A stretch of 51,960 bases of DNA. Source: a phage. The position numbers and the translations under genes are program-made. A model generated the notes under the pieces. The model saw only the letters and a list, made by a program, of their open reading frames with translations. It had not been told where the DNA came from and ran no database searches. The stretch lies in the sequence record PZ000615.1. The stretch is one strand, 5' to 3'. Shown here piece after piece: positions 1 to 51,960 of the stretch. How positions within the stretch are numbered: position 1 is the first letter of the stretch; each line of letters opens with the position of its first letter.

Positions 1-355
1 CGTTCGAGTCAAATCTCAGGTCAAATCGGCAATAGCTTGCGCGAAATCCTTTGCACTTATTCCGGACGTAATCGCGATGAATAGCCATGGCACCGGACAC
101 GGAAATCATACCACGCTTGCGCCATTCGTAAAGTGTGGCGTGAGAGATCTTAATGGCCTTGACAAGGGCGGCGGGTGAGCCGTAGTATTCAATCACCTTT
201 TCGAGGCGATGCGCTAATCCGGCCTTTACCTCATCCTTCAGGACGTAATAGCCAGTTGGTTTCTTGCGCTCTTTCTTATCAGCTCCGCGTGAAGTCCCGT
301 TATTACCGTTGAGAGAACGTTTGTCTACCGCGCCGGATTTTGTCAGTTTCGTCAT
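1..355 (-). CDS. Partial CDS (start codon in window, 3' end beyond window edge): putative helix-turn-helix transcriptional regulator
   Basis: Minus-strand open frame from ATG at 355-353 with GAGGA Shine-Dalgarno upstream, no stop before position 1 (hence absent from ORF track); translation contains HTH-like segment ISHATLYEWRKRGMISVSGAMAI; divergent from helicase operon. Confidence 0.4.
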   Translation of the reverse strand, partial: MTKLTKSGAVDKRSLNGNNGTSRGADKKERKKPTGYYVLKDEVKAGLAHRLEKVIEYYGSPAALVKAIKISHATLYEWRKRGMISVSGAMAIHRDYVRNKCKGFRASYCRFDLRFDSN

Positions 356-367
356 GATATTTTCCTC

Positions 368-412
368 AATAGCACTTTTTGTTAAACCAGTTGTCTTGTT
401 GAGTGTTATTAT
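368..412 (+). promoter_or_regulatory. Promoter-like cassette (palindromic element + -10-like hexamer)
   Basis: AATAGCACTTTTTGTTAAA 368-386; TATTAT 407-412, 22 nt after TTGTTA; upstream of helicase. Confidence 0.4.
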
Positions 413-450
413 ATCGGAATATTACTGTAAACGTAAGAGATAAATGCGCT

Positions 451-2484
451 ATGACTATGAGTATTCAAAAGCAAATTGCCGCTCTTGATCCTGAGTACAT
501 GAAGAGGGTTAAGAGTCGATTCACGTTTGGCGATCTGGTTCCTTATGACTACCAGGTTGTCATGTACGGCGAGACGGCAAAGAGGATCGCCAATTACGAA
601 CATCCTTTCTACATCAAGGCGTCAGTGTCAGCAGGTAAGACCGTAGGTTTTGCCATGGTTGCTGCTCAATGCCAGGTCATGAATCTGCCTATGCTCATTC
701 TTGCTCGTCAGGCTGAGATTGTTCAGCAGGACAGCGAGGAACTTTCAAACTTTGGCGTGAAGAACTCCGTTTACTGCGCAGGGCTTAACACCAAGTCTGC
801 ATACTTCCCGATAGTAGTCGGATCTGAGGGTTCTGTTGCTAATGGCTTGGACAAGGCTCTTGCTGACTTTTATCCTATGGTTGTCGGCATTGATGAATGC
901 CATCAGGTAGACTGGGAGGACTTAGCTGAGGCCATTGAGAACAATGAATCAAGGGATCAGATGTCACGAGCGAAAGACAAGCCTTATCGCGTCAACGAGC
1001 ATCACGTGGCGGAGGATTACAAATTTCATGACTTCGATGTCGTCGAATATGGTACAGGGCGAGCACAGTACACAATCATCATCATGGAATTAATGCGTCG
1101 TTGCCGTGAGCGGTACGGTCGAGAGCTGAGAGTTTTCGGAATGACTGGATCAGAGTTTCGCGGCGTGGTTCCTATCCTGGTTGAAGATAAAAAGCATCGT
1201 GGTTTCTGGCGTGAGCAGGTCACTGACATCAACACATCTTACCTTGTTGATTTCGGCTCTGTTGTTCCGACAATATTTGGTGGCACTGACGGACTCAAGT
1301 ATGACCTTGATGAGTTCAAGGCATCCAGTCAGGATGGAACTGCTGATTTCGGCGCGAAAGAAATGAAAGCCATGGAGAAGAAAATTCATGAGTCAGCCAG
1401 CTTAACCAAACAGATCATGACCAAGGTTGCAGAAATGGCACAGACCAGGAACGCCGTACTGATAACGTGCGCGGGTCAGCGTCATTGTAAGGAGGCGGCT
1501 GAAGCGTTGCCACCTGGTAGCACTTACGCAATCATCACCGAAAAGACTAACGCCAAGAAGCGACAGCAGATCTTGGATGACGTAAGGGCGGGTAAAATAA
1601 AATACACCTTCCAGGTTATGGCTTTGACAACTGGCGTCAACGTTCCAAACTGGGACTTTAGCGTCATACTCCGCAAGATAGGGAGCTTGACACTCCTGAT
1701 CCAGTTGCTTGGGCGCGGGATGCGATTACTCAAAAAGCAACAGATTGAAATGGGTATGGTCAAAGAGGATCATCTCGTCTGGGACTTTGCCGGAACAATG
1801 GATGAACTCGGACAGCTTTACTTTGATCCGATTCTGGAGCAGTACCAATATCAGAGAAAAGGAGACCGCATCAAAGACCAGGAAAAATGCCCTATCTGTG
1901 GGACAATGAACAGTGGATTTGCTCGTCGCTGTATGCACCGAGACGAACACGGAAACCGTTGTGAGTATTTCTGGAAGTCTCAGATCTGCTCTGACATTGT
2001 CGACAAGCGAACCAACGAGATCATAAAGAAAGGTTGCGGAACCGAAAATGATGTGGTAGCAAGGGTATGCCGTTGCTGTGACGCTTCTCTAATCGATCCC
2101 AACGAGAAGCTATCCGGCAAGATGTACACGAAAAATGATTGGTGTGACGTTCTTGACTTCAAGGTCGGCATGACCAAGAGCCAAACCGGAATACTTTATC
2201 ATTACCGACTCAGGGACGCCGTAGGGGTTGAGTTTGACGCCGTGGAGAAGTTCTTCCCTGAGAGCGATAACAAGATCTGTAAAACGCTCTGGCGGTCAAA
2301 GGGGGTTACTCCTCACGTAGTCGGAAAGGACAACCGCAATTTACTCGGTCTGACAAAAAACGCTGTCAAGATTTTTAGCATGAAACACCTCATACTCTCA
2401 CCAATCCGAGTTACTCACCGGAAAAATGGGAAGGGTGAGGACATTATTAGCCGCAAAGACTTTGGAGGGGAAATTGATAACTGA
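451..2484 (+). CDS. SF2 (DEAD/DEAH-type) ATP-dependent helicase with C-terminal Cys-rich zinc-ribbon region
   Basis: Track ORF 403..2484; first ATG at 451; Walker A SAGKT, Walker B/DEAH-like GIDECHQ, C-terminal CPICG...RRC...RCCD cysteine clusters. Confidence 0.75.
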   Translation: MTMSIQKQIAALDPEYMKRVKSRFTFGDLVPYDYQVVMYGETAKRIANYEHPFYIKASVSAGKTVGFAMVAAQCQVMNLPMLILARQAEIVQQDSEELSNFGVKNSVYCAGLNTKSAYFPIVVGSEGSVANGLDKALADFYPMVVGIDECHQVDWEDLAEAIENNESRDQMSRAKDKPYRVNEHHVAEDYKFHDFDVVEYGTGRAQYTIIIMELMRRCRERYGRELRVFGMTGSEFRGVVPILVEDKKHRGFWREQVTDINTSYLVDFGSVVPTIFGGTDGLKYDLDEFKASSQDGTADFGAKEMKAMEKKIHESASLTKQIMTKVAEMAQTRNAVLITCAGQRHCKEAAEALPPGSTYAIITEKTNAKKRQQILDDVRAGKIKYTFQVMALTTGVNVPNWDFSVILRKIGSLTLLIQLLGRGMRLLKKQQIEMGMVKEDHLVWDFAGTMDELGQLYFDPILEQYQYQRKGDRIKDQEKCPICGTMNSGFARRCMHRDEHGNRCEYFWKSQICSDIVDKRTNEIIKKGCGTENDVVARVCRCCDASLIDPNEKLSGKMYTKNDWCDVLDFKVGMTKSQTGILYHYRLRDAVGVEFDAVEKFFPESDNKICKTLWRSKGVTPHVVGKDNRNLLGLTKNAVKIFSMKHLILSPIRVTHRKNGKGEDIISRKDFGGEIDN

Positions 2485-4170: not shown

Positions 4171-4421
4171 ATTTACCAGGCTTGAACTTTGACGAAACAG
4201 TTTACTCCCTTACGTGGAGAGGCAATATCAAGTTCCGTGAGATTCCATTCTCTGACTGGTTGCCTCCCGATCACAAGGATGTCATTTGTTACGGAAACGG
4301 TCAGGTATTTGAGGCTTATTTTTCTCCTCTATCTGGTTTCATGGTTCCGTCAGAAAACTCCACGGCTCATTGTGCTTTTGAGCCATGCGAGCTTGATTAC
4401 TGGTTGAAAGAGGTGGAGTAA
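4167..4421 (+). CDS. Hypothetical protein
   Basis: Track ORF; ATGA overlap with upstream gene. Confidence 0.5.
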   Translation: MNLPGLNFDETVYSLTWRGNIKFREIPFSDWLPPDHKDVICYGNGQVFEAYFSPLSGFMVPSENSTAHCAFEPCELDYWLKEVE

Positions 4422-7986: not shown

Positions 7987-8390
7987 AAAAGACAATCATC
8001 GCTTGTTGCGTATCTCTGGCTTTAATCGTATCTGGTTGCTCGGCTACGTCTGCTCTGACTGGTCTAATCGGCAGCAAGCCGGATGTCACAGCACAGGCCG
8101 GAGCCGAAAACACAAAACAGACTCTCGGACTGAACAGCAAGGTTGACCAATCCAGCAAGTCGGACAACACGATTAAGGATTCAGCCGTCGGCTCTGTTGA
8201 TAGCTCCAACGGCAAACGAGTTAACGCCTCAAGCATCACGGCGGATATGATCAAGGCAGACAAGATTGAGATCAGGAATAATGAGGCTTACGTGTGGGAA
8301 ATGGAGGCAGGGATGTTTGTCGTTGGCCTAATGGCGGGCGCTCTCGCAGTTACCATCTACGCGACACGCAGAAAGAACAAAGGAGCCTAA
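7983..8390 (+). CDS. Unimolecular spanin (lipoprotein signal + C-terminal TMD)
   Basis: N-terminal lipobox LIVSGC, C-terminal [24 protein letters not shown] overlap with endolysin; followed by terminator. Confidence 0.65.
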
Positions 8391-8404
8391 CGGCTCCTTT
8401 TTTT
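8382..8404 (+). terminator. Rho-independent terminator after spanin gene
   Basis: GGAGCC-TAAC-GGCTCC followed by TTTTTTT. Confidence 0.6.
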
Positions 8405-8565
8405 ATTCGTACAACTTGACGTGAAGGATACAAACCCCATCCTCATCATTAAGACCATGCTCAAAGTGACCGCTAGCCCTCATGCTGGTCGTCAACATTG
8501 ACAGCAGGGCGCAATTCAAACCCTCCCCGCTTATCCGGTTCACAGCCACACACTCAACGATTGAG

Positions 8566-8952
8566 TCAATTACTGTTTGAGCTTCCACGTATGGATCTGG
8601 CTCTTTCAATTTCGTGCCTCCTGAATAGATATTCGTCATCAAGCTTTCCGATGTTCATCATCTCTTTCATGTAAAGGCTCTCGCTTGCTTCCAGTGAATG
8701 CAGCTCAAAGTCAAACGGCCTGCTCTCTTTGTTCTTTACCCAAGCCTTTCCGCCCGACATATCCAGGTAGCCAAGCGTGCAAAGGCGCGGAATGAACTCA
8801 CGACCGACACAGGCGGCGAACTGCTTAGGAGTAACTCCGGCGCTCCTGGCTAATCGCTCACACTCGCGATGACCGAACACAAATGTTGATAACTCCTGGC
8901 GGGTAAATTCCCGCCGTGACTCTGCGAACCGATACAGATCAAGAATGAACAT
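8566..8952 (-). CDS. Hypothetical protein
   Basis: Track ORF; adjacent to stop of 526-aa gene; overlapped at 3' end by alternative-frame ORF 8403..8642. Confidence 0.4.
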   Translation of the reverse strand: MFILDLYRFAESRREFTRQELSTFVFGHRECERLARSAGVTPKQFAACVGREFIPRLCTLGYLDMSGGKAWVKNKESRPFDFELHSLEASESLYMKEMMNIGKLDDEYLFRRHEIERARSIRGSSNSN

Positions 8953-8954
8953 GA

Positions 8955-10535
8955 TTACCCCAGTAAGCGCGGGTTAACGTAAACGTCATCACCAATCAGG
9001 CAGACGTAACCTAATTCCTCAAGCTTTGGCAGCAGGTGATCACGAATGCGCTTTGTGACTCCAGACTGACCAAAGAAAGGTTTGATCTTGCGTACACCCT
9101 CATAGATTGAGCGGAACTTGATCACGCCTTTAGCGTTCTTGCCACGCTTGACGATGAAGTCAACGAGAACCCTCATCTCAGCATCGTCACCAGCATGACC
9201 AGCAGAGTTAGCTGATGAGAGATAAGTTTTGCTCAGCTCATAGAACATCGCAACAGCCTCTTGCATCGTGTCAAGGTCAACCGTCTTTGACTTCTGAGGG
9301 TTTGAGTTCTCACTCGACCAATTCCGGATCACGTGGATAACCGACGCAAGGCGAATCGCCTGTTTGTCAAACTTACCCATCGCACCGCGCAGCATCGTGT
9401 GAGAATACTTCCCACCATCCGCCAAGTGTGGCTCCATCTCCTGGCGTGCTCGGTTGAGATACTTCATCGCAGCCGCTCCCACCTTGAGCTTAATATCGCT
9501 CTCACTCATGATTTCGTGGATCAGCTTGTAGTATTTGGCGACAAGCTCTGAATCAATCGGGGTGTAAGTGCTTTCGCCTTTCTCATCGACGAACTTACGA
9601 CGACCCAAGTAAGACTCCTCACGAACCAGCAAGAAACGCTCCGATACACCGATACCACGCGAACCAGCCGCCATGATACCTTCTATCGTTTCGTCCTGAG
9701 CGATAACCGCAATCGCCCCCATAGCTACAAAGCTCATGTTGTTGTCAGCATTCGCACGAGCGATGGATACGTGACCGCTATCCCAGGCTTTAAGCACAAG
9801 TTCACTGTTCGTCTTGCGGCTCGCGTCCTGGTATGTCATGCCGAGCAATGAGTTGATACTCGTTGCCTCATCCGATATCACCGAGAAGTTGCCTTGTCGG
9901 TTGTTGATTCGAGCCAAGCCCTCCGGCGTGGTGTCGGATACAGGAAACACGATGTCACACATCTTTTCGAGTTTCTCCTCCAGATCCTCAAGCTCCTCGT
10001 AGAGGGATGCCATATCAGCTTTAGACTTCTCCCCCTTGAGTTCGGTCTTACACGCTGAGATCTTAGCCATTAAGCGTTTGCGCTCTTTCTTGCGCAGCTC
10101 GTTAAGGCGGTCAACCTCTGCGATCATTGGTTTGATTGCCATTGAGTTAATGGCTGATTTACCTGTCGATGGTGGCTGACTGGTTACGACGTAAAGCGCC
10201 GTTGGCTGATCTGTCCCGTGGTAGTCTACAGTGAATCGACCAAGCATAGCAGCAGACACGCACGCAAGAAAATGCATGTAAGCCGATGACTCTGGGAACT
10301 GAACAGAACGCGCCGCGTTTGCCGAAAGCTTTCCGACGATATCCAGATCGTTACCGAGAGAGATCACAGGATATTTGTCATTGCCGCCGTCAACGTCTTT
10401 AACCTCCGTCCAAAACGAGGACGAATGACGATACCCGTTAGCCTTTATTGCAACGCGCAGAGGTGAGATCCCCTCATTTTCTGCGATCACAATAATCTGC
10501 TGTGGCGTCATGGTCTGTTGCATATGGTCAAACAT
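8955..10535 (-). CDS. Large hypothetical protein with P-loop-like motif and coiled-coil segment; possibly replication-associated (DUF3987-like by recollection only)
   Basis: ATG with AAGGAG SD; PSTGKSA P-loop-like, SVISDEAT Walker-B-like, Glu/Lys-rich coiled coil ELEDLEEKLEK. Confidence 0.55.
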   Translation of the reverse strand: MFDHMQQTMTPQQIIVIAENEGISPLRVAIKANGYRHSSSFWTEVKDVDGGNDKYPVISLGNDLDIVGKLSANAARSVQFPESSAYMHFLACVSAAMLGRFTVDYHGTDQPTALYVVTSQPPSTGKSAINSMAIKPMIAEVDRLNELRKKERKRLMAKISACKTELKGEKSKADMASLYEELEDLEEKLEKMCDIVFPVSDTTPEGLARINNRQGNFSVISDEATSINSLLGMTYQDASRKTNSELVLKAWDSGHVSIARANADNNMSFVAMGAIAVIAQDETIEGIMAAGSRGIGVSERFLLVREESYLGRRKFVDEKGESTYTPIDSELVAKYYKLIHEIMSESDIKLKVGAAAMKYLNRARQEMEPHLADGGKYSHTMLRGAMGKFDKQAIRLASVIHVIRNWSSENSNPQKSKTVDLDTMQEAVAMFYELSKTYLSSANSAGHAGDDAEMRVLVDFIVKRGKNAKGVIKFRSIYEGVRKIKPFFGQSGVTKRIRDHLLPKLEELGYVCLIGDDVYVNPRLLG

Positions 10536-10610
10536 CTTTTCTCCTTAGTGGCGGTGAATAGTACACCGCCGATCATAAAACACTATCAGTCAAAAAGCCA
10601 GTTGGGGCGA

Positions 10611-11027
10611 TTACAAATATTTCGCTTCAAAAGTTGTTCCGTCAGCAATGCTAAAACCTACATCCTCGCGGTACAGGTTCCAGGGGCAACCGTCCTCATC
10701 AAAGATCAGACCAGCCACACCGCCAAGCGCTCGACCGGAATCCACCTGGTAACGCTTGCCAACCTTAAATGATTTCTTCATTGGGTTTTTGTGATCAAGC
10801 GACATGCACTTGAGGGTTTTGGTTTTCAGCTCAACGAACGTTGCAGCAACGACGCCATTACTTGAGATGAAGATTTCACCACTCACGCCAACCGACAGGA
10901 CAATCTTTTCCTTGCCCTTGCCAACGGTCACATTACCCTCGTCATCAACCTTTGCCTTTACCATATGGTTAGCGTTAAAAGCTTTGGTCAGTGACATTGT
11001 GCATTTCAGTTTGATTGATTTAGACAT
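10611..11027 (-). CDS. Hypothetical protein
   Basis: Track ORF. Confidence 0.5.
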   Translation of the reverse strand: MSKSIKLKCTMSLTKAFNANHMVKAKVDDEGNVTVGKGKEKIVLSVGVSGEIFISSNGVVAATFVELKTKTLKCMSLDHKNPMKKSFKVGKRYQVDSGRALGGVAGLIFDEDGCPWNLYREDVGFSIADGTTFEAKYL

Positions 11028-11038
11028 TTCTATGTTCC

Positions 11039-11200
11039 TTATGCAAAGTTTTTGAATTTACGAGCGCGGCGCTCCGCTATGATTCGATCCGACACATAGT
11101 GATCAACTCGGCTATCATTGAACTTTGTCACGATATCATCAACCACAAAGATAGCAAGCGGGAGGATAACGGAGATTGCCATGATGATTAAGATGATCAT
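11039..11200 (-). CDS. Small membrane protein (53 aa)
   Basis: Minus-strand ATG at 11200; translation MIILIIMAISVILPLAIFVVDDIVTKFNDS... with N-terminal TM helix; below track cutoff. Confidence 0.35.
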   Translation of the reverse strand: MIILIIMAISVILPLAIFVVDDIVTKFNDSRVDHYVSDRIIAERRARKFKNFA

Positions 11201-11236
11201 TTGTCGTTCCTTTGTGCGTTTCGTTTCGATGGAGCT

Positions 11237-11281
11237 AATATAACAAAACCCGCCGGAGCGGGTTTATCAAAAAGTGCTATT
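11237..11281 (-). promoter_or_regulatory. Promoter-like cassette (minus orientation) overlapping terminator hairpin
   Basis: Minus strand AATAGCACTTTTTGATAAA, hairpin CCCGCTCCGGCGGG in spacer, TATATT 22 nt after TTGATA; upstream of small membrane ORF. Confidence 0.35.
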
Positions 11282-11960
11282 TTCGATTAGCCTGGAAAAC
11301 TGCACGAGCGAAACCGCGAGGTGTGAGTGACCGTAACTGCTTGGTCTTTGATGACTTGCCTCCGAGGAACTTCCATCCCCAGAAGAACCAGACACCCTCA
11401 TCTTTAGGCAGTTCCATCTTAACTGGCTCCTTGAACCCGTTACCGCACCAGATACAGGTTTTCTTTGTGTACCCATCTCGCAACGGCATTTTAGGATGCC
11501 AGGAACCCTCATCAGCTCCTACGTAATATCCGAAATCGCGAGGGTGGAAATAAAAGTTCGGCTTGCCTAACTTGTCCTCGTTCGACATCTTCCCTACAGG
11601 ATTCTCAATCATCCATGGAATATCAAGTTCCTGGCCTATGTTCTTAACCACTTTCGCACACTCAAGAGCGTAAGCCATTTCATCCTCCTCGCGGAAGTGC
11701 TTAGCGCCGGAATGAGCAAACAGCGTGCAATCAGGGAACCCAAAGATGATGTCAGGGCGCGGAATGCCAAGCAGATCACACTTGATAAGAAAATCCTTAT
11801 CGATCCACATATTGACGTAACGAACCAGAGGGTGATTCATCTTCACGGCGTACTCACCATGATTTCCAGAGTCGGCGTTGAAGCAATACACCGTGTGACC
11901 ATGCTCAGCCCAAGGCAACCCCATAATGCCGGATCCGTCAAAAAGCGACCATACAATCAT
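11277..11960 (-). CDS. Compact DNA cytosine-C5 methyltransferase-like protein
   Basis: Motif I SLFDGSG (FxGxG), motif IV GFPDCTLFAHSG (catalytic Cys), motif VI WMIENPVG (ENV); only 227 aa; stop codon TAG lies inside promoter element copy. Confidence 0.55.
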   Translation of the reverse strand: MIVWSLFDGSGIMGLPWAEHGHTVYCFNADSGNHGEYAVKMNHPLVRYVNMWIDKDFLIKCDLLGIPRPDIIFGFPDCTLFAHSGAKHFREEDEMAYALECAKVVKNIGQELDIPWMIENPVGKMSNEDKLGKPNFYFHPRDFGYYVGADEGSWHPKMPLRDGYTKKTCIWCGNGFKEPVKMELPKDEGVWFFWGWKFLGGKSSKTKQLRSLTPRGFARAVFQANRK

Positions 11961-11969
11961 CTCACCACC

Positions 11970-12206
11970 TCACCAAAAAGGAACACATTCTTTGCAAGCG
12001 CCCGTCAACCTGCACTCGTCGTTACAATACGTCATGCCGTCATCGGCAACCATCGTCGGAACTACAGCTCCGCTCTCTGCGATCACATCCATATCACCAA
12101 GAGCGTCATCAAGCGTGATCTCTTGCGTTGCTACCTTCTCAGCCCACTCCGGATCTAATCCAGCCTTGCGAGCTTCATAATAACGGAATCTCTCTGAACG
12201 GTTCAT
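11970..12206 (-). CDS. Hypothetical protein
   Basis: Track ORF. Confidence 0.45.
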   Translation of the reverse strand: MNRSERFRYYEARKAGLDPEWAEKVATQEITLDDALGDMDVIAESGAVVPTMVADDGMTYCNDECRLTGACKECVPFW

Positions 12207-12526
12207 TTTTTATTCGCCTCTCTTAATTTTGCCGCGCATGATTTGCAGCACGTCTTGCCCCATCCGCGAGCAAGGTCTGAATTCCTTACCGGATATACCT
12301 TATCGCAACCTGGAGCCTCGCATTTCTTAAGCTTTCCAGCAGTGCGCTTTTTAAACTCATCAACCTGATTTGATTGCTCGGCCTTGCGCCAAAACTGTTG
12401 GATTGTTGCGATTTGCTCCCCGTCCTCATTAACCAAAATAAGGACTGATTTTGATTCGCTGGCGATCACATCGCAATGATGGGAGTCGCCATTTATTTCA
12501 ATCAGAACGCGATCACCAGCTTTCAT
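12203..12526 (-). CDS. Hypothetical protein with C-terminal Cys cluster (zinc-ribbon-like)
   Basis: Track ORF; C-terminal CEAPGC...CCKSC. Confidence 0.45.
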   Translation of the reverse strand: MKAGDRVLIEINGDSHHCDVIASESKSVLILVNEDGEQIATIQQFWRKAEQSNQVDEFKKRTAGKLKKCEAPGCDKVYPVRNSDLARGWGKTCCKSCAAKLREANKK

Positions 12527-12756
12527 TATTTCACCTCGGAAATGATTGGGAGCATTTCATTAACCAAACGGATAGCTGACTCAATGCCAACGCGCTTAAT
12601 TCCCGTTTCGTTATTCTTGCACAAAATAACGCTACCGATAGTTGAGCGGGTAATTACCAGGCGCTTAACGTTGTGGCCTTTGCTCGTGCGAATATCAACG
12701 GAGCCGTTAACAGCCACTTTATTCATAATTTCGGTCACGCTAAATTTGTTGTTCAT
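12526..12756 (-). CDS. Hypothetical protein
   Basis: Track ORF. Confidence 0.45.
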   Translation of the reverse strand: MNNKFSVTEIMNKVAVNGSVDIRTSKGHNVKRLVITRSTIGSVILCKNNETGIKRVGIESAIRLVNEMLPIISEVK

Positions 12757-12789
12757 TTCATTACCTTACTGTTTTGTTGGATTGAGTAA

Positions 12790-12836
12790 AGCTTAACGCC
12801 TTTCTCGTTATTTGTCTTTAGCAATTTGTGCTATTT
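12790..12836 (-). promoter_or_regulatory. Promoter element copy (minus orientation), weak -10
   Basis: Minus strand AATAGCACAAATTGCTAAA; hexamer at the expected position is TTAAGC (poor -10). Confidence 0.25.
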
Positions 12837-13194
12837 AATCGCGGGTAGTCTTGCCGTCGAAAGCTCTGAATTTAAAGTTCACAGTCGAGTTATAATGCGC
12901 TCGTGAATATCCGTCTGGGAAGTTAAAACCAGGCTCAATCTCACCGACGAAACATATAAAGTCACCGTTGTGATTGCTCAGATTAATACCACCATCAGCC
13001 AGGCTTAATTTAATCAAGTTGGCATTGTCTGCTGCCTTATAACCCTGAGGAAAGAATCGATCACACGCCGCTATAATCTCAGCTTTCTGCAACTCCAATA
13101 TCTCAGAGGTTGCTCTCTTTACGGCGTCAGTTACAGATCTCACAGGTTCAACCGGAGCGTAATATCGGGAGATGCTTACGTTTACATTTTTCAT
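12835..13194 (-). CDS. Hypothetical protein
   Basis: Track ORF. Confidence 0.45.
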   Translation of the reverse strand: MKNVNVSISRYYAPVEPVRSVTDAVKRATSEILELQKAEIIAACDRFFPQGYKAADNANLIKLSLADGGINLSNHNGDFICFVGEIEPGFNFPDGYSRAHYNSTVNFKFRAFDGKTTRD

Positions 13195-13430
13195 TCAACC
13201 ACCTCAAATGTTGCAACGCCGAGAATTGCCAGGCCGCGAGGCCAGCGAGTTAGAGCTATCCATCCGGAGCCGTGTTTATGCTCGCGATCAGCTCCAGTGA
13301 TAACGAACTCATTCGGGACTGTTTTGCCGTTAATAACCAAATCGGCAGCTTCGTACACCGAACCCTTTTTGAATGGAGTCAAGACCTTTTTGTCAGACGA
13401 CTCAATTACGTTTGAGCATTTTACTTTCAC
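13191..13430 (-). CDS. Hypothetical protein
   Basis: Track ORF, overlaps neighbours by 4 nt. Confidence 0.45.
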   Translation of the reverse strand: MKVKCSNVIESSDKKVLTPFKKGSVYEAADLVINGKTVPNEFVITGADREHKHGSGWIALTRWPRGLAILGVATFEVVE

Positions 13431-13678
13431 AGTTTTCGCCCCTCGTCAATAAAGCATTCCAGAAATACGCTCTTATCTTCCAAGTCGAGCGATGAGTGAT
13501 TCAGCCACTCAATCACAGTGCCGAGCTGAACATTGTCAGCGTAAGCCTGACGCCCTTCATTGCAGAGGTCAACCGAGTTAACAACCGGAGCCTCGACGGT
13601 GATTGTGTCGGCGTGAACTTCCCAGGCTGATCCAAGGATGCAAGCTGTTGCGATGATGATTGCAGTGATGCGTTTCAT
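13427..13678 (-). CDS. Small secreted/periplasmic protein (signal peptide)
   Basis: N-terminal MKRITAIIIATACILGSAWEVHA signal-peptide-like; first gene after a promoter element copy. Confidence 0.5.
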   Translation of the reverse strand: MKRITAIIIATACILGSAWEVHADTITVEAPVVNSVDLCNEGRQAYADNVQLGTVIEWLNHSSLDLEDKSVFLECFIDEGRKL

Positions 13679-13707
13679 GATGCGTTCTCCTCTGTTTCGT
13701 TGAGATA

Positions 13708-13752
13708 ACTATACCAAAGCCAGCCCCAGGAGTTTTAGCAATTCGTGCTATC
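13708..13752 (-). promoter_or_regulatory. Promoter-like cassette (minus orientation)
   Basis: Minus strand GATAGCACGAATTGCTAAA then TATAGT after 22 nt; upstream of secreted-protein gene. Confidence 0.4.
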
Positions 13753-13810
13753 TGAAAAGGCGGCGCGGAACATCCGCCCTTAATGTTTTTGACCAGTCAG
13801 AGCGTCGACG

Positions 13811-13969
13811 TTACTTTGCGTCATGCTCCTGTACCTCTGCGTAATAGTTAATCTCGTGATCGATTTCATGCTCTCGCTTTCGGGCGTCTGCCTCATCAAG
13901 CCAAACGCTATCAATCCAAGAGTCACCGCCTGACCAATTCTCATTCTTTGTTACGATCCAGACTTTCAT
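13811..13969 (-). CDS. Small acidic protein (52 aa)
   Basis: ATGA start/stop overlap with upstream gene 13966..14382; translation MKVWIVTKNENWSGGDSWIDSVWLDEADARKREHEIDHEINYYAEVQEHDAK; below track cutoff. Confidence 0.3.
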   Translation of the reverse strand: MKVWIVTKNENWSGGDSWIDSVWLDEADARKREHEIDHEINYYAEVQEHDAK

Positions 13970-14382
13970 GACAGTTCCTCCGGATGATACATTTTCTCGC
14001 GACGAATCTTGACATCAGCAATTCGATCCATTGTCGATTCAATGTGATGAACGGATGAGATCGCACGTTGCCATAACTTAAGATGACGATCCCATACGAA
14101 CGACATCCCAGAAATGACAGCAAAAGGATAACCGCGCTCTGAATGGTACAGCACGCCAGGGTATTCAATTTTCATCATGCTCTCAATGCGCTTGATCGCG
14201 TAGTTGATGAAGCAAGCCTGGCCGTTAGCGTTTCCGGTCGTGTAGGTATTGCGCCACACGATTTCCCAGTCCCGATATGCAACAACAACCTCAGTACGCC
14301 CGATTGAGTTGTGGTTACGCTGCACGCTAAAGCCAGCCTCACGAGCGCGTTTCAGTGCATCCTCAAGGTGATAGTGTCTCAT
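13966..14382 (-). CDS. Hypothetical protein
   Basis: Track ORF. Confidence 0.5.
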   Translation of the reverse strand: MRHYHLEDALKRAREAGFSVQRNHNSIGRTEVVVAYRDWEIVWRNTYTTGNANGQACFINYAIKRIESMMKIEYPGVLYHSERGYPFAVISGMSFVWDRHLKLWQRAISSVHHIESTMDRIADVKIRREKMYHPEELS

Positions 14383-14386
14383 TATC

Positions 14387-14650
14387 TCAGTCCTCTACTG
14401 TGAATTTGATCGGCTCTTTGCCGTCTGCTTTACGCTGCTTGTTAACCAGTGATTCGAACTTACTCATGCACTCCTTCAGATCTGTAAAGGTTGACGCCGT
14501 ACCCATAACCCGATACGACTCAACGTTTTTGCCGCGAACATAGTTGATAACCTTTTTGCAGATCTTGAACTTGTCACCCTTTGCGCTTGACTCCTGAAAC
14601 ACTGCGATTGTGGTTGAGCCATGCTTGAATGCTTTAGTGATGAATGCCAT
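14387..14650 (-). CDS. Hypothetical protein (first gene of leftward early operon)
   Basis: Track ORF; AGGAGG SD; preceded by promoter element copy. Confidence 0.5.
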   Translation of the reverse strand: MAFITKAFKHGSTTIAVFQESSAKGDKFKICKKVINYVRGKNVESYRVMGTASTFTDLKECMSKFESLVNKQRKADGKEPIKFTVED

Positions 14651-14674: not shown

Positions 14675-14721
14675 GATTATGACCGATTCGAGACTGATTG
14701 GTTTAGCAAAAAGTGCTATTT
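14675..14721 (-). promoter_or_regulatory. Promoter-like cassette (minus orientation), first of leftward operon
   Basis: Minus strand AATAGCACTTTTTGCTAAA; CATAAT-like hexamer ~23 nt downstream; then CATCGAAACAGGAGG-ATG. Confidence 0.4.
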
Positions 14722-14902
14722 CTTGCAGATTGTCATAATGACTATATTGTTGCTGTATTGTTCATGATCGCATAACGCCTTTGCTCATATAGCAATAGTG
14801 ATTGTTGCTGTGATAGCAAATGTGTGCGCTCATTATTGCTTGATATGCATTAAGTTGAGAGGGGTAGAGATGGTGATTCGCTGTTCGCCTGATGACTGTT
14901 GG

Positions 14903-15445
14903 AAATTTCACGGAGGATTTGGGGAGGATTACGGAGGATTTCTCGGACTCAATTAGACGAACCTTTCAGAGCTACAGCTCATCTTTCTCCATCCCTGACT
15001 TGTCTGATATGCTACGGAGGGTTGCGGAGGATTACGGAGGATTTGCAATTCGGCTCTAGCCCTTGGTGCGCGTGGCTTGCGAGAGATTTACGCCGGAAAA
15101 TGTCGATTTCTCTATGGGGGCTGGTATAGATATACATAGAGAATGATGAGAAAGTGATGTGTCCATACGCTCACAGAAAAAATCCGATAACCCAATAATC
15201 AACATAATCCTCCGTAAACTATGAAACGATACCAATATACCAATAGAGAGATATAGTAATAATATATATAAAAACCCTTATATTACATATATATATAGTA
15301 TTATTATATACTATCTATACTGATTAGCTTGGTCATAAAATGAGCTGATTTTACGGAGGATGGTTCCGGCGCAATCCTCCGCGATTTCGATAAGTGTATG
15401 ATTTGCAAGGCTGCATTTACGGAGGGTATTTTCCGCAAAACACGT
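14903..15445. repeat. Iteron/AT-rich non-coding region A (candidate origin or regulatory hub)
   Basis: Tandem CGGAGGATT-like 10-11-bp repeats at 14911-14940 and 15015-15043, inverted/extra copies at 15206-15214, 15351-15362, 15371-15384, 15415-15428; AT-rich core 15225-15330; blocks shared with region B. Confidence 0.6.
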
Positions 15446-16212: not shown

Positions 16213-16712
16213 TGGTGGCCTCATACGTGGGGCTGTTCACCCTGGCAAACGTGAACGTCGCTATGTTCGGAGTGTGGGTTACACCGTTCAACGCGCTATT
16301 CATTATTGCTGCTGATATGGTGATACGCGACAGAATCCAGTATGACGGCGGAGCGCTTGTTGCAATATTCGCCTCACTGCTTGCTGGTTCTGCAACAATA
16401 GCCATAGTTCCGGATGCAGGTCGAATAGCCATAGCGTCAAGCTTGTCCGTTGTCCTTGCTGGCCTTGCCTCTGCTGTTGCATTTAGGTTGAGGCGTGGGG
16501 ATTTCTACAGAAAGTCATATCAGGCAAATGTGATCGCTGCTGCTGTTGACTCAATCGCTTTCCCTGTGATAGCGTTCGGCTCGGTCATGATGTATGTGAC
16601 ACTCGCGCAGTTTGCAGCCAAAGTCATTGGCGCTTCTGTCATACTCTACTTAATGAAAAGGTGTTTCAATAATGACAGTTCACTTTCACGGCTCTCCAAT
16701 AACGGGCGGTAA
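16197..16712 (+). CDS. YhhQ/VUT-family-like integral membrane protein (putative queuosine-precursor transporter)
   Basis: Multi-pass hydrophobic protein; segments FNALFIIAADMVIRDRI, AFRLRRGDFYRKSYQANVIAAAVDSIAFPVIAF and QFAAKVIGASVILYLM align by eye with recalled E. coli YhhQ; alternative start 16212. Confidence 0.55.
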   Translation: MRKILMVASYVGLFTLANVNVAMFGVWVTPFNALFIIAADMVIRDRIQYDGGALVAIFASLLAGSATIAIVPDAGRIAIASSLSVVLAGLASAVAFRLRRGDFYRKSYQANVIAAAVDSIAFPVIAFGSVMMYVTLAQFAAKVIGASVILYLMKRCFNNDSSLSRLSNNGR

Positions 16713-16719
16713 GGGTGAT

Positions 16720-17493
16720 ATGATGGCTCGCGTTGCATATCGCGGCGCGGGTGCATTCGTATCTTACGCTCACCCAAAGCAGATCAACATGACCCTTGAG
16801 GTTGCTGACGCTGTATGCATAGACAACGGCGCATTCTCAAAGAAGAATACCGGACGCGAGACGGATTGGAACGGGTTTTACAACGACTTTCTCCCAAGGT
16901 TTATCGACCATCCGAAACTCAGATTCTTTGTTATTCCGGATGACATAAGCGGAGACGACCAGGAGAACGACAGGCTTATCCGTGAGCTACCAGCGCACCT
17001 TAAACACAAAGGCGCTCCGGTATGGCACTTGCACGAGAGCATAGATCGCCTTGTTCACCTGGCTAACGAGTGGGAGTATGTATGTCTTGGCTCATCAGGA
17101 GAATACTACTCAATCCGATCCCCTAAGTGGCGAGCAAGGATGGATGAGGCATTCAACGCTCTGATCTCTCGCGGGTATTCTGCTAAGCTTCACGGCCTGA
17201 GGATGCTGGATGGTCGAGTTCTTGGCAATTATCCACTTGACCAGGCCGACTCAACCAATATCGCCATTAATGCGCCAAAGTGGTTATGCAAGCACGTGCA
17301 GATGACTATAGAGGCTTGCCGGATGCAGACGCATTTCAGTAAGTGGATTGACACAACAGATCCGAAGGTAGCTCTTGATAACCTGATCTCTGCCGGAGGA
17401 ACTAAAGAGCAAATGCTATCTCAGAGGTGCGCAATCCTGAAATCGTGCATTGAGTCAGTCAAACCTCCGCATAAGTCTGACTGGTTAAAATAG
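16720..17493 (+). CDS. TGT-fold protein, putative DpdA-like DNA transglycosylase (tentative)
   Basis: Track ORF 16672..17493; probable ATG 16720 after AGGGTGA; CIDNGAF resembles TGT DSGGFQ catalytic-Asp motif, YVCLGSSGEY resembles TGT YAVGGLAVGE; no zinc CxCxxC..H motif; adjacent to YhhQ-like gene. Confidence 0.4.
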   Translation: MMARVAYRGAGAFVSYAHPKQINMTLEVADAVCIDNGAFSKKNTGRETDWNGFYNDFLPRFIDHPKLRFFVIPDDISGDDQENDRLIRELPAHLKHKGAPVWHLHESIDRLVHLANEWEYVCLGSSGEYYSIRSPKWRARMDEAFNALISRGYSAKLHGLRMLDGRVLGNYPLDQADSTNIAINAPKWLCKHVQMTIEACRMQTHFSKWIDTTDPKVALDNLISAGGTKEQMLSQRCAILKSCIESVKPPHKSDWLK

Positions 17494-50355: not shown

Positions 50356-50399
50356 AGTATACCCGATCTCATTCGTTGCGTTTAGCAAAAAGTGCTAAT
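50356..50399 (-). promoter_or_regulatory. Promoter-like cassette (minus orientation) upstream of exonuclease-erf-ssb operon
   Basis: Minus strand AATTAGCACTTTTTGCTAAA then TATACT ~21 nt downstream, then CAGGAG SD and ATG 50325. Confidence 0.4.
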
Positions 50400-50407
50400 T
50401 TTCACTC

Positions 50408-50860
50408 AACGGAGGATTGCGGAAATTTACGGAGGATTTGAAATCTGGCTCTAAGCCTTGCCACTACTGGATTTGTCGACAATCTACGCCGGAAAATGTC
50501 GATTTTCTCGCTCTATAGACACCAAAAACGCAGAAAACAGGCACAAAAAAAGATCCAATAACCCAATAATCAACATAATCCTCCGTAAATAAATAATATA
50601 CATCACATAGATAATGATAATATCTATATATATTAGACACTTACGTATATCTAAAGGTTGAAAATAGCTCATTATTTGAACGAAATTCGCGGAGGATTGA
50701 TCCGGCGTAAATTCCGCAAATTCTGTAAGTAACTGATTTTGTTGAATGCAATTGCGGAGGATTTTTTCGTGAATCTCCCGTAAATCGGCCTTGTTTAAGT
50801 TTGTTAAATCTTTTTCCGGAGGATTGCGGAGGATTGCGGAGGGTTTGCGGAGGATTTTTC
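50408..50860. repeat. Iteron/AT-rich non-coding region B, paralogous to region A
   Basis: CGGAGGATT copies at 50410-50440, 50575-50588 (inverted), 50688-50700, 50750-50765, four tandem copies 50816-50856; AT-rich core 50580-50660; shares TACGCCGGAAAATGTCGATTT and ATAACCCAATAATCAACATAATCCTCCGTAAA with region A. Confidence 0.6.
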
Positions 50861-50887
50861 CGGCGTAAAAAAACCCGCCGAAGCGGG

Positions 50888-51829
50888 TTAGTTTTTGCGG
50901 TTGATTAGGACTATCGGATCGTAAAGTGCTCGCTTGCAACCGGATTTGAATCCTGAGCGGTCATCATTTGGAATGATAACTTTCAACTCCCTGTCATCTG
51001 CCATGTATAGAGTATCAAGATCGCCTGACGCACAAGCCACTCTAAGCTCACGCTCTCCGGTATACCTGTATGCGACAATCTCAAGGTTGCTAGGCTCAAT
51101 GCACGCCCAACACTCTTGGCCTGTAGCCTCATGAACTCGGACGGCATCAAACCACGAATTAACAAGGTATATGGCTTTGTCTGTCGATCCTACCTTTATG
51201 ACTGCTCCTCTCGTGTAGTCTCTGGCATAGAACCGCTCATCGCCAAGCTCATCTATAAATAGAAGGTTGCAGTATTCATCATCAAGATCATCTCCCTGCA
51301 CGAGCTGCATCGGGAGTACGTGAAAAACGCTCTCAGCTCCATTCTCAAGGGTTTTCACGCCTACATCGAATGATTCACCTATTAGCCCCTCAAACATCGT
51401 CAGAGGCGTCTGCGCTCGCTTCTCAGTCCTATCCAGAACCGCCTGGCATTTGTCATGCTCGGCAGTAGCTCCAAAGCTGTAGCCTGGGTCTTTCGCGGCT
51501 CTCTTGTTCTGCTTGATTACATATTCCTGAGGAACCTTGCCGAGGAATCTACCGAGGATGTTAATGCATTCACTGTAAGGCTCGCCGGACAACTTCATAA
51601 GCCAGCCAATCCCTTTGTCAGCTCCGCAATTGTTGCAATAAGCCCAACCGTCACCGACCTTGTTGTCCTTTTTGTTTGTCCAACGAAATCTATCCTTACC
51701 GCCACAGTGAGGGCAGTCCTGATGCTTGCCGTTGAAGTATTTCGAGTTCAGGCCGCAAATGCTTTGGAGCGCGTCTTGCCACATGTTAGCCATGTATGGG
51801 ATCACGTCCTCCTCCTGGTACATCATCAT
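50888..51829 (-). CDS. DNA primase (zinc-ribbon + TOPRIM-like)
   Basis: N-terminal CPHCGG...RFRW...CNNCG zinc ribbon; C-terminal acidic motifs GDLDTLY and IIPNDDRSG. Confidence 0.55.
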   Translation of the reverse strand: MMMYQEEDVIPYMANMWQDALQSICGLNSKYFNGKHQDCPHCGGKDRFRWTNKKDNKVGDGWAYCNNCGADKGIGWLMKLSGEPYSECINILGRFLGKVPQEYVIKQNKRAAKDPGYSFGATAEHDKCQAVLDRTEKRAQTPLTMFEGLIGESFDVGVKTLENGAESVFHVLPMQLVQGDDLDDEYCNLLFIDELGDERFYARDYTRGAVIKVGSTDKAIYLVNSWFDAVRVHEATGQECWACIEPSNLEIVAYRYTGERELRVACASGDLDTLYMADDRELKVIIPNDDRSGFKSGCKRALYDPIVLINRKN

Positions 51830-51900: not shown

Positions 51901-51960
51901 GTGCTTATTTTACTACTCGGAGCATTTCTCGACGGTCACAGCGAGTGGTTAGAGCCTTGC

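Follow-up and report, generated by a model that had tools for sequence, protein, structure and literature searches.

A stand-alone DUF3987, MCM-like protein as the probable replicative helicase of a T1-like phage

The phage sequence record PZ000615.1, analysed here over its whole 51,960 nucleotides (nt; the window), is a complete, circularly permuted genome of the Drexlerviridae (T1-like) family, Eclunavirus group. Joining its end to its start (51906–51960 plus 1–356, minus strand) restores an intact 136-amino-acid (aa) gene whose product is 98% identical to a protein of Enterobacter phage Phc, from which we conclude that the genome is complete and circularly permuted. Phc and Ec_L1, Enterobacter phages of the genus Eclunavirus, are the nearest phages in both nucleotide and protein searches. 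The leftward gene cluster at 8403–14650 includes a 526-aa gene, which an earlier note, made from the sequence without database searches, correctly described as the largest of its operon and proposed as a candidate replication initiator. We find that this gene probably encodes the phage's replicative DNA helicase, a protein resembling minichromosome maintenance (MCM) helicases; its family, predicted fold, conservation, selection and genomic context all bear on this reading. Across this gene, hereafter the helicase gene, nucleotide identity to Phc and Ec_L1 is 86–87%, and the protein is 98.7% identical to that of Phc. The gene, its parts and the surrounding features are listed in Table 1.

The protein belongs to the Pfam family DUF3987 (PF13148), which matches with E = 2.5e-41 and a score of 142.5 bits against a cut-off of 27, aligning residues 81–431 with profile positions 3–351 of 364. 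All 25 aligned homologs match the same family. The earlier note had guessed by eye at a DUF3987-type, primase-associated protein, a guess fully borne out by this match and by the primase-fused relatives described below; profile searches assigned the protein to no structural or unrelated enzymatic family. The PHROG 2373 family, annotated ‘DNA helicase’, matches with E = 1e-242, and PHROG 7327 separately matches the C-terminal 95 residues. NCBIfam returned nothing meaningful for the protein. PADLOC returned no match, and a defence-system reading was rejected on that ground. Neither a profile match nor a RecA- or superfamily 3 (SF3)-type fold connects the protein to the SF3 D5_N and D5-like primase-helicases or to SF4 DnaB.

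The relationship to MCM comes from structure. A Pfam scan of the 25 homologs at E ≤ 1 gave no link to MCM, AAA, D5_N or DnaB, and sequence searches of the Protein Data Bank (PDB) with the single protein and with the 25-sequence profile returned coiled-coil noise only. Because there is no sequence-level Pfam link, the MCM relationship can be demonstrated here by fold alone. An AlphaFold2 (AF2) model built from the 25-sequence alignment has a predicted local distance difference test score (pLDDT) of 88.2 and a predicted template modelling score (pTM) of 0.85. When this predicted structure was compared with the PDB using Foldseek, the top 50 matches were all MCM subunits. They exceed all other matches by 3–5 Z units; ranked below them are RavA, the BchI magnesium chelatase subunit, the SCCmec Cch helicase, ComM, BrxL and the SaPI5 primase-helicase. 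Kazlauskas et al. likewise tied DUF3987 to MCM by profile-profile comparison, as divergent superfamily 6 (SF6) helicases (PMC4889955). The MCM link rests on the predicted structure together with these published HHsearch results, and as modelled the protein is a divergent MCM-like (SF6) AAA+ ATPase and a stand-alone member of DUF3987.

Examination of the aligned homologs, whose identity falls as low as 35%, highlights a set of invariant residues. The motifs PSTGKSA (residues 122–128) and SVISDEAT (residues 218–225), first noticed by eye, overlap them: Q120-P-P-x-x-G125-K126-S127, S221 and E223 are invariant in all 25 homologs, as are R260, I278-A279, E299-R300, R383-G384, G387-K388 and D390-K391. 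Since these residues are unchanged across homologs down to 35% identity, the Walker motifs are not chance matches. Compared with the two nearest phages, ∼13% of the nucleotides of the helicase gene have changed and only 7 to 15 amino-acid positions. The corresponding ratio of nonsynonymous to synonymous substitution rates (dN/dS) is 0.015–0.021 and is similar across the N-terminal, ATPase and C-terminal parts; for the N-terminal domain it is ∼0 against Phc. The gene is under very strong purifying selection, with a dN/dS of ∼0.02.

In the model, the core begins with a strand (residues 115–119) followed by the P-loop, a helix (126–168), a fold-back helix (172–191), a short strand and a further helix (204–214). 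A second series comprises a strand (217–221) leading into D222-E223, a β-hairpin (255–270) that carries R260, and a strand (273–279) followed by Q-D-E. The core ends with a helix (281–291), the motif G-x-S-E-R300-F, a strand (301–305) and a helical lid (329–405). As predicted, this order of elements is that of AAA+ proteins, namely Walker A, Walker B, pre-sensor-1 hairpin, sensor 1, arginine finger and lid, and the hairpin, the SRF-type arginine finger and the lid are those of an MCM-type core. We infer the roles of individual residues from this order and from conservation. G-x-S-E-R300-F is likened to the MCM ‘SRF’ motif by its place in the order of elements, the invariant lid residues are candidates for sensor 2, and the β-hairpin with R260 is, by analogy with MCM, a probable DNA-contacting pore loop.

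Three further elements surround or interrupt this core. Residues 1–97 are predicted to form an all-helical domain, in which the AF2 model contains neither an oligonucleotide/oligosaccharide-binding (OB) fold nor a zinc finger, and which is possibly a collar or a partner-binding domain. A charged helical hairpin (residues 126–191) follows the Walker A helix. The earlier note described an acidic coiled coil; one helix of the hairpin is indeed acidic (net −5), but the other is basic (net +7), and the hairpin as a whole carries a net charge of +2. At the C-terminus, residues 446–526 form a winged-helix domain, whose third helix has a polar or basic N-terminal half that varies from genus to genus.

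The helicase gene is a Drexlerviridae core gene. Its T1 ortholog is ST9 (YP_003936.1, 44517–46085), which is flanked by ST7 upstream and ST10 downstream and adjoins the lysis cassette; PZ000615.1 shares both the ST7-ST9-ST10 order and the place beside the lysis cassette, and the order is also kept in phages KLPN1 and Sfin-1. The PZ000615.1 protein is about 56% identical to the T1 and Sfin-1 orthologs. Homologs are found in 1151 deposited phage records, chiefly from Drexlerviridae and Vibrio phages, and an exhaustive profile search matched 6456 representative clusters at E ≤ 1e-3. In contigs of distant phages, with a helicase of only 35–36% identity, the gene stands first in an operon with a superfamily 2 (SF2) helicase, a VRR-NUC nuclease, a PDDEXK exonuclease and a single-stranded DNA-binding protein (SSB). 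The protein family is already described and partly characterised, and orthologs are already annotated as DNA helicases, with annotations that range over ‘hypothetical protein’, ‘DNA helicase’ and ‘DNA replication protein’.

Published work gives the family a place in replication. DUF3987 proteins have a winged helix-turn-helix at their C-terminus, are frequently associated with primases of the archaeo-eukaryotic (AEP) or DnaG type and have a predicted replicative role, and the essential N4 dns protein belongs to the family (PMC4889955). To examine fused domains, we scanned ten N-terminally extended DUF3987 relatives. One of these, P0149, is a fusion with a DnaG CHC2 zinc-ribbon primase and matches the whole T1-type protein; other fusions among the ten are to Prim-Pol, to a BT4734-type AEP, to the NrS-1 polymerase helix-bundle domain (HBD) and to the DnaB N-terminal domain. 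The primase part of P0149, which is encoded on a contig too short to show gene neighbourhood, had no homology to the PZ000615.1 primase by BLASTP, and a PDB sequence search with the phage primase gave no match. Relatives are fused to DnaG-type or AEP primases, and here the primase is encoded in the same genome at a separate, non-adjacent locus.

The genome also encodes an SSB, an Erf recombinase and a PDDEXK exonuclease. Its one other helicase, of the SF2 type, resembles the repair helicase RadD most closely and, with the VRR-NUC nuclease, makes up what looks like a fork-processing pair, not a replicative helicase; recent genome papers, which report no origin for T1-like phages, name this RadD-like protein as the replication helicase. 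No DNA polymerase, DnaB-type helicase or loader was found among the remaining sizeable open reading frames (ORFs) of the genome, and T1 and TLS are likewise without a DNA polymerase (PMC11447400). Because a primase, an SSB and a RadD-like helicase are present and neither a polymerase nor another ring helicase was found, we read the DUF3987 protein as the replicative helicase. Its role in replication is well supported, and it is very likely the only plausible ring helicase of the phage replisome.

We infer ring assembly, residue roles, partners and fork function as follows. The helicase would be made early from the leftward operon and would assemble into a ring, probably a hexamer. ATP would be held between subunits by K126 and S127 of Walker A, with E223 of Walker B as the catalytic residue and with the adjacent subunit contributing R300 as the arginine finger. 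Single-stranded DNA would be threaded through the ring pore, lined by the R260 β-hairpins. The helicase would work with the separately encoded primase, its presumed working partner, and with the phage SSB, and host DNA polymerase III would be used for synthesis since the phage lacks a polymerase. Docking or regulatory functions may fall to the C-terminal winged helix, the N-terminal helical domain and the charged hairpin, with DNA, the primase or the neighbouring 128-aa winged-helix protein as possible partners. MCM moves 3′-5′ and the sole tested DUF3987 helicase moves 5′-3′, so the phage protein may differ from MCM in polarity.

Several observations count against this assignment. HMMER detects no similarity to MCM or any other AAA family at the sequence level. 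The Walker B aspartate D222 is D in close relatives and A in distant homologs of the 25-sequence alignment. The primase gene is not adjacent to the helicase gene, lying ∼10 kb away across the circular junction. Finally, T1 DNA synthesis reportedly needs host elongation genes, and should dnaB be one of them, the role of main fork helicase might not fall to the phage protein.

The last of these points leads to a different reading, in which host DnaB is the main fork helicase and the phage protein is an accessory helicase that takes part in recombination-dependent replication, the restart of forks or the formation of concatemers. The dependence on host elongation functions just mentioned would agree with this, as would the Erf/exonuclease module of T1-like phages and the operons of distant phages, which pair the gene with a PDDEXK exonuclease, AAA_24 or DUF1351, SSB and VRR-NUC. 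However, the genome already has the RadD-like SF2 helicase and VRR-NUC for fork processing, and a phage-encoded primase argues for a primosome of the phage's own. One relative carries the primase-binding N-terminal domain of DnaB, and DUF3987 is listed as one of the modules that primase fusions contain in place of DnaB, RepA or MCM (PMC5862659). We consider an accessory role improbable, if less so than the view that the protein is a non-unwinding AAA+ machine (for example one that loads or remodels host DnaB, or an ATPase for host takeover or anti-defence), which the non-helicase AAA+ proteins RavA, BchI and BrxL among the lower-ranking fold neighbours might suggest but which is very hard to sustain given the Z-score lead of the MCM matches, the pre-sensor-1 hairpin with its invariant arginine, a proven helicase within DUF3987, the lack of a PADLOC match and the primases fused to relatives.

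The reading that best competes with a purely replicative helicase, that of the protein as an initiator-helicase, turns on two intergenic regions. The earlier note spoke of CGGAGGATT iterons and of an AT-rich region A, which lies between the divergent early operons, and these repeats are real: 35 matches at ≤1 mismatch are found against 11 expected, a number reached in 0 of 100 shuffles. A paralogous region (region B) lies immediately downstream of the primase gene. The two regions are ∼67% identical over ∼400 alignment columns, including one 40-nt identical block, and in each of them tandem CGGAGGATT repeats at 10–11 bp spacing occupy both flanks of ∼100 bp of nearly pure A+T. To judge from the sequence, this is an origin-like architecture. 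No CGGAGGATT cluster was found in or beside the helicase gene, and the nearest one, at 14911, is 4.4 kb from the gene start.

We compared these regions and their candidate binders across five genomes. Phc has the same repeats at both places, whereas T1, Sfin-1 and KLPN1 have other short repeats there, and within each of these three phages regions A and B share no repeat; the non-repeat conserved blocks of the two regions are genus-specific. When repeat sequence is set against candidate binders, everything follows phylogeny, with T1 and Sfin-1 as the sole discordant pair. Between these two phages the helicase winged helix is 99% identical, the Cro-like regulator 97% and the primase 97%, and the 128-aa partner is near-identical by eye in an unscored alignment; part of T1 region A, including its CGATTAACA repeats, is replaced in Sfin-1.

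As an initiator-helicase, the protein would use its C-terminal winged helix to read CGGAGGATT in region A, region B or both, melt the AT-rich core and load itself. We regard this as unlikely overall, albeit clearly better placed than an accessory role. The domain order is suitable, with a winged helix that follows the ATPase and a genus-variable, polar or basic third-helix segment, and the repeats have the regular spacing, the AT-rich neighbourhood and the duplication into two paralogous elements, one abutting the primase gene, that such a protein might use. Their sequence varies between genera as it would with a co-evolving specific binder, and neither origin nor initiator is known for Drexlerviridae. 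In phage P4, the alpha protein unites a primase and a helicase with a winged helix at its C-terminus, and this winged helix binds iterons at the two loci ori and crr. The idea stays alive because of this analogy, and the annotation of the T1 primase notes a similarity to alpha proteins of the P4 type. In the minimal PICMI satellites, moreover, DUF3987 ‘primase’ genes are the hallmark of replication (PMC10803314).

Against this, initiator genes usually adjoin their iterons, and the helicase gene lies 4.4 kb from region A. There are two other candidate binders, namely the 128-aa winged-helix protein and the Cro-like helix-turn-helix (HTH) protein encoded beside the primase, and the repeats could instead be transcriptional operators. 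C-terminal winged helices of MCM- and ORC-type proteins often mediate protein contacts and do not read sequence. The winged helices of T1 and Sfin-1 are nearly the same, yet part of region A differs between these phages. Because T1, KLPN1 and Sfin-1 carry different repeats in their two regions, binding of both regions by one protein is not a family-wide rule. In its most specific form, which draws on the P4 analogy, the helicase and the separate alpha-type primase would together make up the initiator of T1-like phages (a ‘split P4-alpha’), with the winged helix binding CGGAGGATT at ori/crr-like regions A and B in a loader-free system; this too we hold to be doubtful. If true, a bacterial-virus MCM-like helicase would be operating with a DnaG-type primase and host Pol III.

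The genes and control elements next to the helicase gene bear on how it is expressed. The 128-aa protein encoded downstream is found throughout Drexlerviridae and has no assigned family; an N-terminal winged helix is predicted for it (AF2 pLDDT 80, with generic winged helix-turn-helix matches), making it a candidate accessory or DNA-binding partner. A 21-nt repeat, ATAGCACnnnTTGnTAAA, occurs in 18 copies in the genome against 0.01 expected. Nearly all copies are upstream of genes and oriented with transcription, at sites including 369, 15460, 17490 and 50381 (minus strand), and four of them follow the direction of transcription along the leftward cluster, at 14702, 13734, 12817 and 11263 (minus strand). 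The repeat has been described for phage TLS, with function unknown (PMC11447400). Terminator-like hairpins are present at 13361–13342 and 11265–11246. Transcription of the helicase gene from region A, as the earlier note had it, is plausible but not exclusive, with three further ATAGCACnnnTTGnTAAA copies and these two hairpins lying between; given these intervening elements, the gene may be transcribed from either region A or the element at 11263, or from both. A G+C-rich hairpin (GGCGGTG...CACCGCC) that lacks a T tract lies at 10550–10570 (minus strand), shortly upstream of the ribosome-binding site of the helicase gene, and may act in RNA stability or in the control of translation.

Table 1. 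Features of the helicase locus and of related replication loci in PZ000615.1
Feature	Coordinates	Strand	Basis or remark
Gene for 526-aa DUF3987, predicted MCM-like AAA+ helicase; ortholog of T1 ST9	8955..10535	minus	ATG start; ORF, Pfam, PHROG and synteny
Shine-Dalgarno sequence AAGGAG	10541..10546	minus	5 nt before the helicase ATG; read from sequence
Predicted N-terminal all-helical domain, residues 1–97	10245..10535	minus	AF2 secondary structure
Strand β1 and Walker A P-loop, residues 119–127 (SQPPSTGKS)	10155..10181	minus	Invariant QPPxxGKS, after strand 115–119
Charged helical hairpin, residues 126–191, after Walker A helix	9963..10160	minus	Helices 126–168 and 172–191; inside the DUF3987 match
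Strand β3 and Walker B, residues 217–223 (FSVISDE), E223 invariant	9867..9887	minus	Alignment and model
β-hairpin before sensor 1, residues 255–270, invariant R260	9726..9773	minus	Strands 255–258 and 267–270
Sensor-1 strand 273–279, Q280-D281-E282 and G-x-S-E-R300-F putative arginine-finger motif	9636..9719	minus	Alignment and model
Helical lid, residues 329–405; invariant R383, G384, G387, K388, D390, K391	9321..9551	minus	Alignment and model
C-terminal winged-helix domain, residues 446–526	8958..9200	minus	
128-aa gene, ortholog of T1 ST10	8566..8952	minus	2-nt gap after the helicase stop; translationally coupled
138-aa conserved upstream gene, ortholog of T1 ST7	10611..11027	minus	Same transcription unit as the helicase
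Drexlerviridae repeat ATAGCACnnnTTGnTAAA (promoter-associated), nearest copy upstream of the helicase	11263..11280	minus	
Bidirectional terminator-like hairpin closing the leftward unit	8379..8400		
Region A: CGGAGGATT repeats around an AT-rich core, between divergent early operons	~14895..15400		Candidate origin or control region
Region B: paralog of region A, directly downstream of the primase gene	~50395..50885		
Phage primase, 313 aa, primase-helicase-type zinc ribbon	50888..51829	minus	PHROG 510, E = 2e-102; PF08273
Cro-like HTH protein, 136 aa, ortholog of T1 ST23; candidate binder of repeats	51906-51960 joined to 1-356	minus	Between the primase and SF2 helicase genes
SF2 helicase, most similar to repair helicase RadD	403..2484	plus	Only other helicase in the genome
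VRR-NUC nuclease	2426-2902	plus	After the RadD-like SF2 gene

Two further features of the genome were recorded in passing. The 9-mer CTGACTGGT is present in 20 copies (15 on the plus strand and five on the minus) against ∼0.4 expected, mostly within genes, for example at 4252, 10176, 17477, 26315 and 46167 (plus) and at 2773, 13792 and 32764 (minus). It is also over-represented in T1 (14 copies), Sfin-1 (13) and Phc (10), and a variant, CTGATTGGT, has 11–12 copies in T1, KLPN1 and Sfin-1. This 9-mer differs from the E. coli Chi sequence. A 273-aa protein encoded at 16672–17493 (plus) matches PHROG 887, ‘queuine tRNA-ribosyltransferase’, with E = 1e-70 and may be an enzyme of the DpdA type, acting in 7-deazaguanine DNA modification.

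For T1, a classical phage, the origin, the initiator and the identity of the fork helicase have never been established experimentally. A likely ring helicase and two origin-like repeat elements together provide a concrete, testable replisome model for a very large phage family, and they offer a tractable E. coli-type system in which an MCM-like motor would cooperate with a bacterial-type primase and polymerase. As the protein belongs to an already known family, what remains of interest is the uncharacterised T1 replisome and the pair of origin-like elements.

How, then, does this protein compare with known systems? Nothing material distinguishes it from its Drexlerviridae orthologs (PHROG 2373; Phc QYU38200.1 and Ec_L1 gp18). 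Among characterised DUF3987 proteins, AgaPH, a PriCT-DUF3987 protein of a Seonamhaeicola mobile element, is an oligomeric, ATP/dATP-dependent 5′-3′ helicase that binds its primase-polymerase and loses activity when Walker A or Walker B is mutated (PMC11724360). The PZ000615.1 protein resembles AgaPH and N4 dns in that it matches the DUF3987 core along its full length, both Walker motifs are conserved, the C-terminal domain is small, and there is a link to a primase and to mobile-element or phage replication. It differs in the lack of a PriCT or AEP domain, in an N-terminal helical domain of its own, kept only in close relatives, and in a partner primase of the DnaG/P4-alpha zinc-ribbon type encoded ∼10 kb away. 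The staphylococcal SCCmec Cch and SaPI primase-helicase/Rep proteins, which are MCM-like members of DUF927, belong to a different Pfam family, and their fold is more distant than that of MCM itself. With MCM proteins (archaeal MCM, Mcm2-7 and MCM8/9), the model shares the order of elements, including the S-x-R-F arginine finger, and a C-terminal winged helix; it differs in having no N-terminal OB-fold/zinc-finger tier, in the 66-residue charged helical hairpin after the Walker A helix, and in the lack of a Pfam MCM match. From the phage P4 alpha system the protein studied here differs in that the helicase is MCM-like and not SF3, the primase is a separate gene and the iterons do not adjoin the gene, and iteron binding is a candidate activity only. 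The two systems nonetheless share a primase, a ring helicase and a winged helix, together with two separate iteron-bearing cis elements in the genome.

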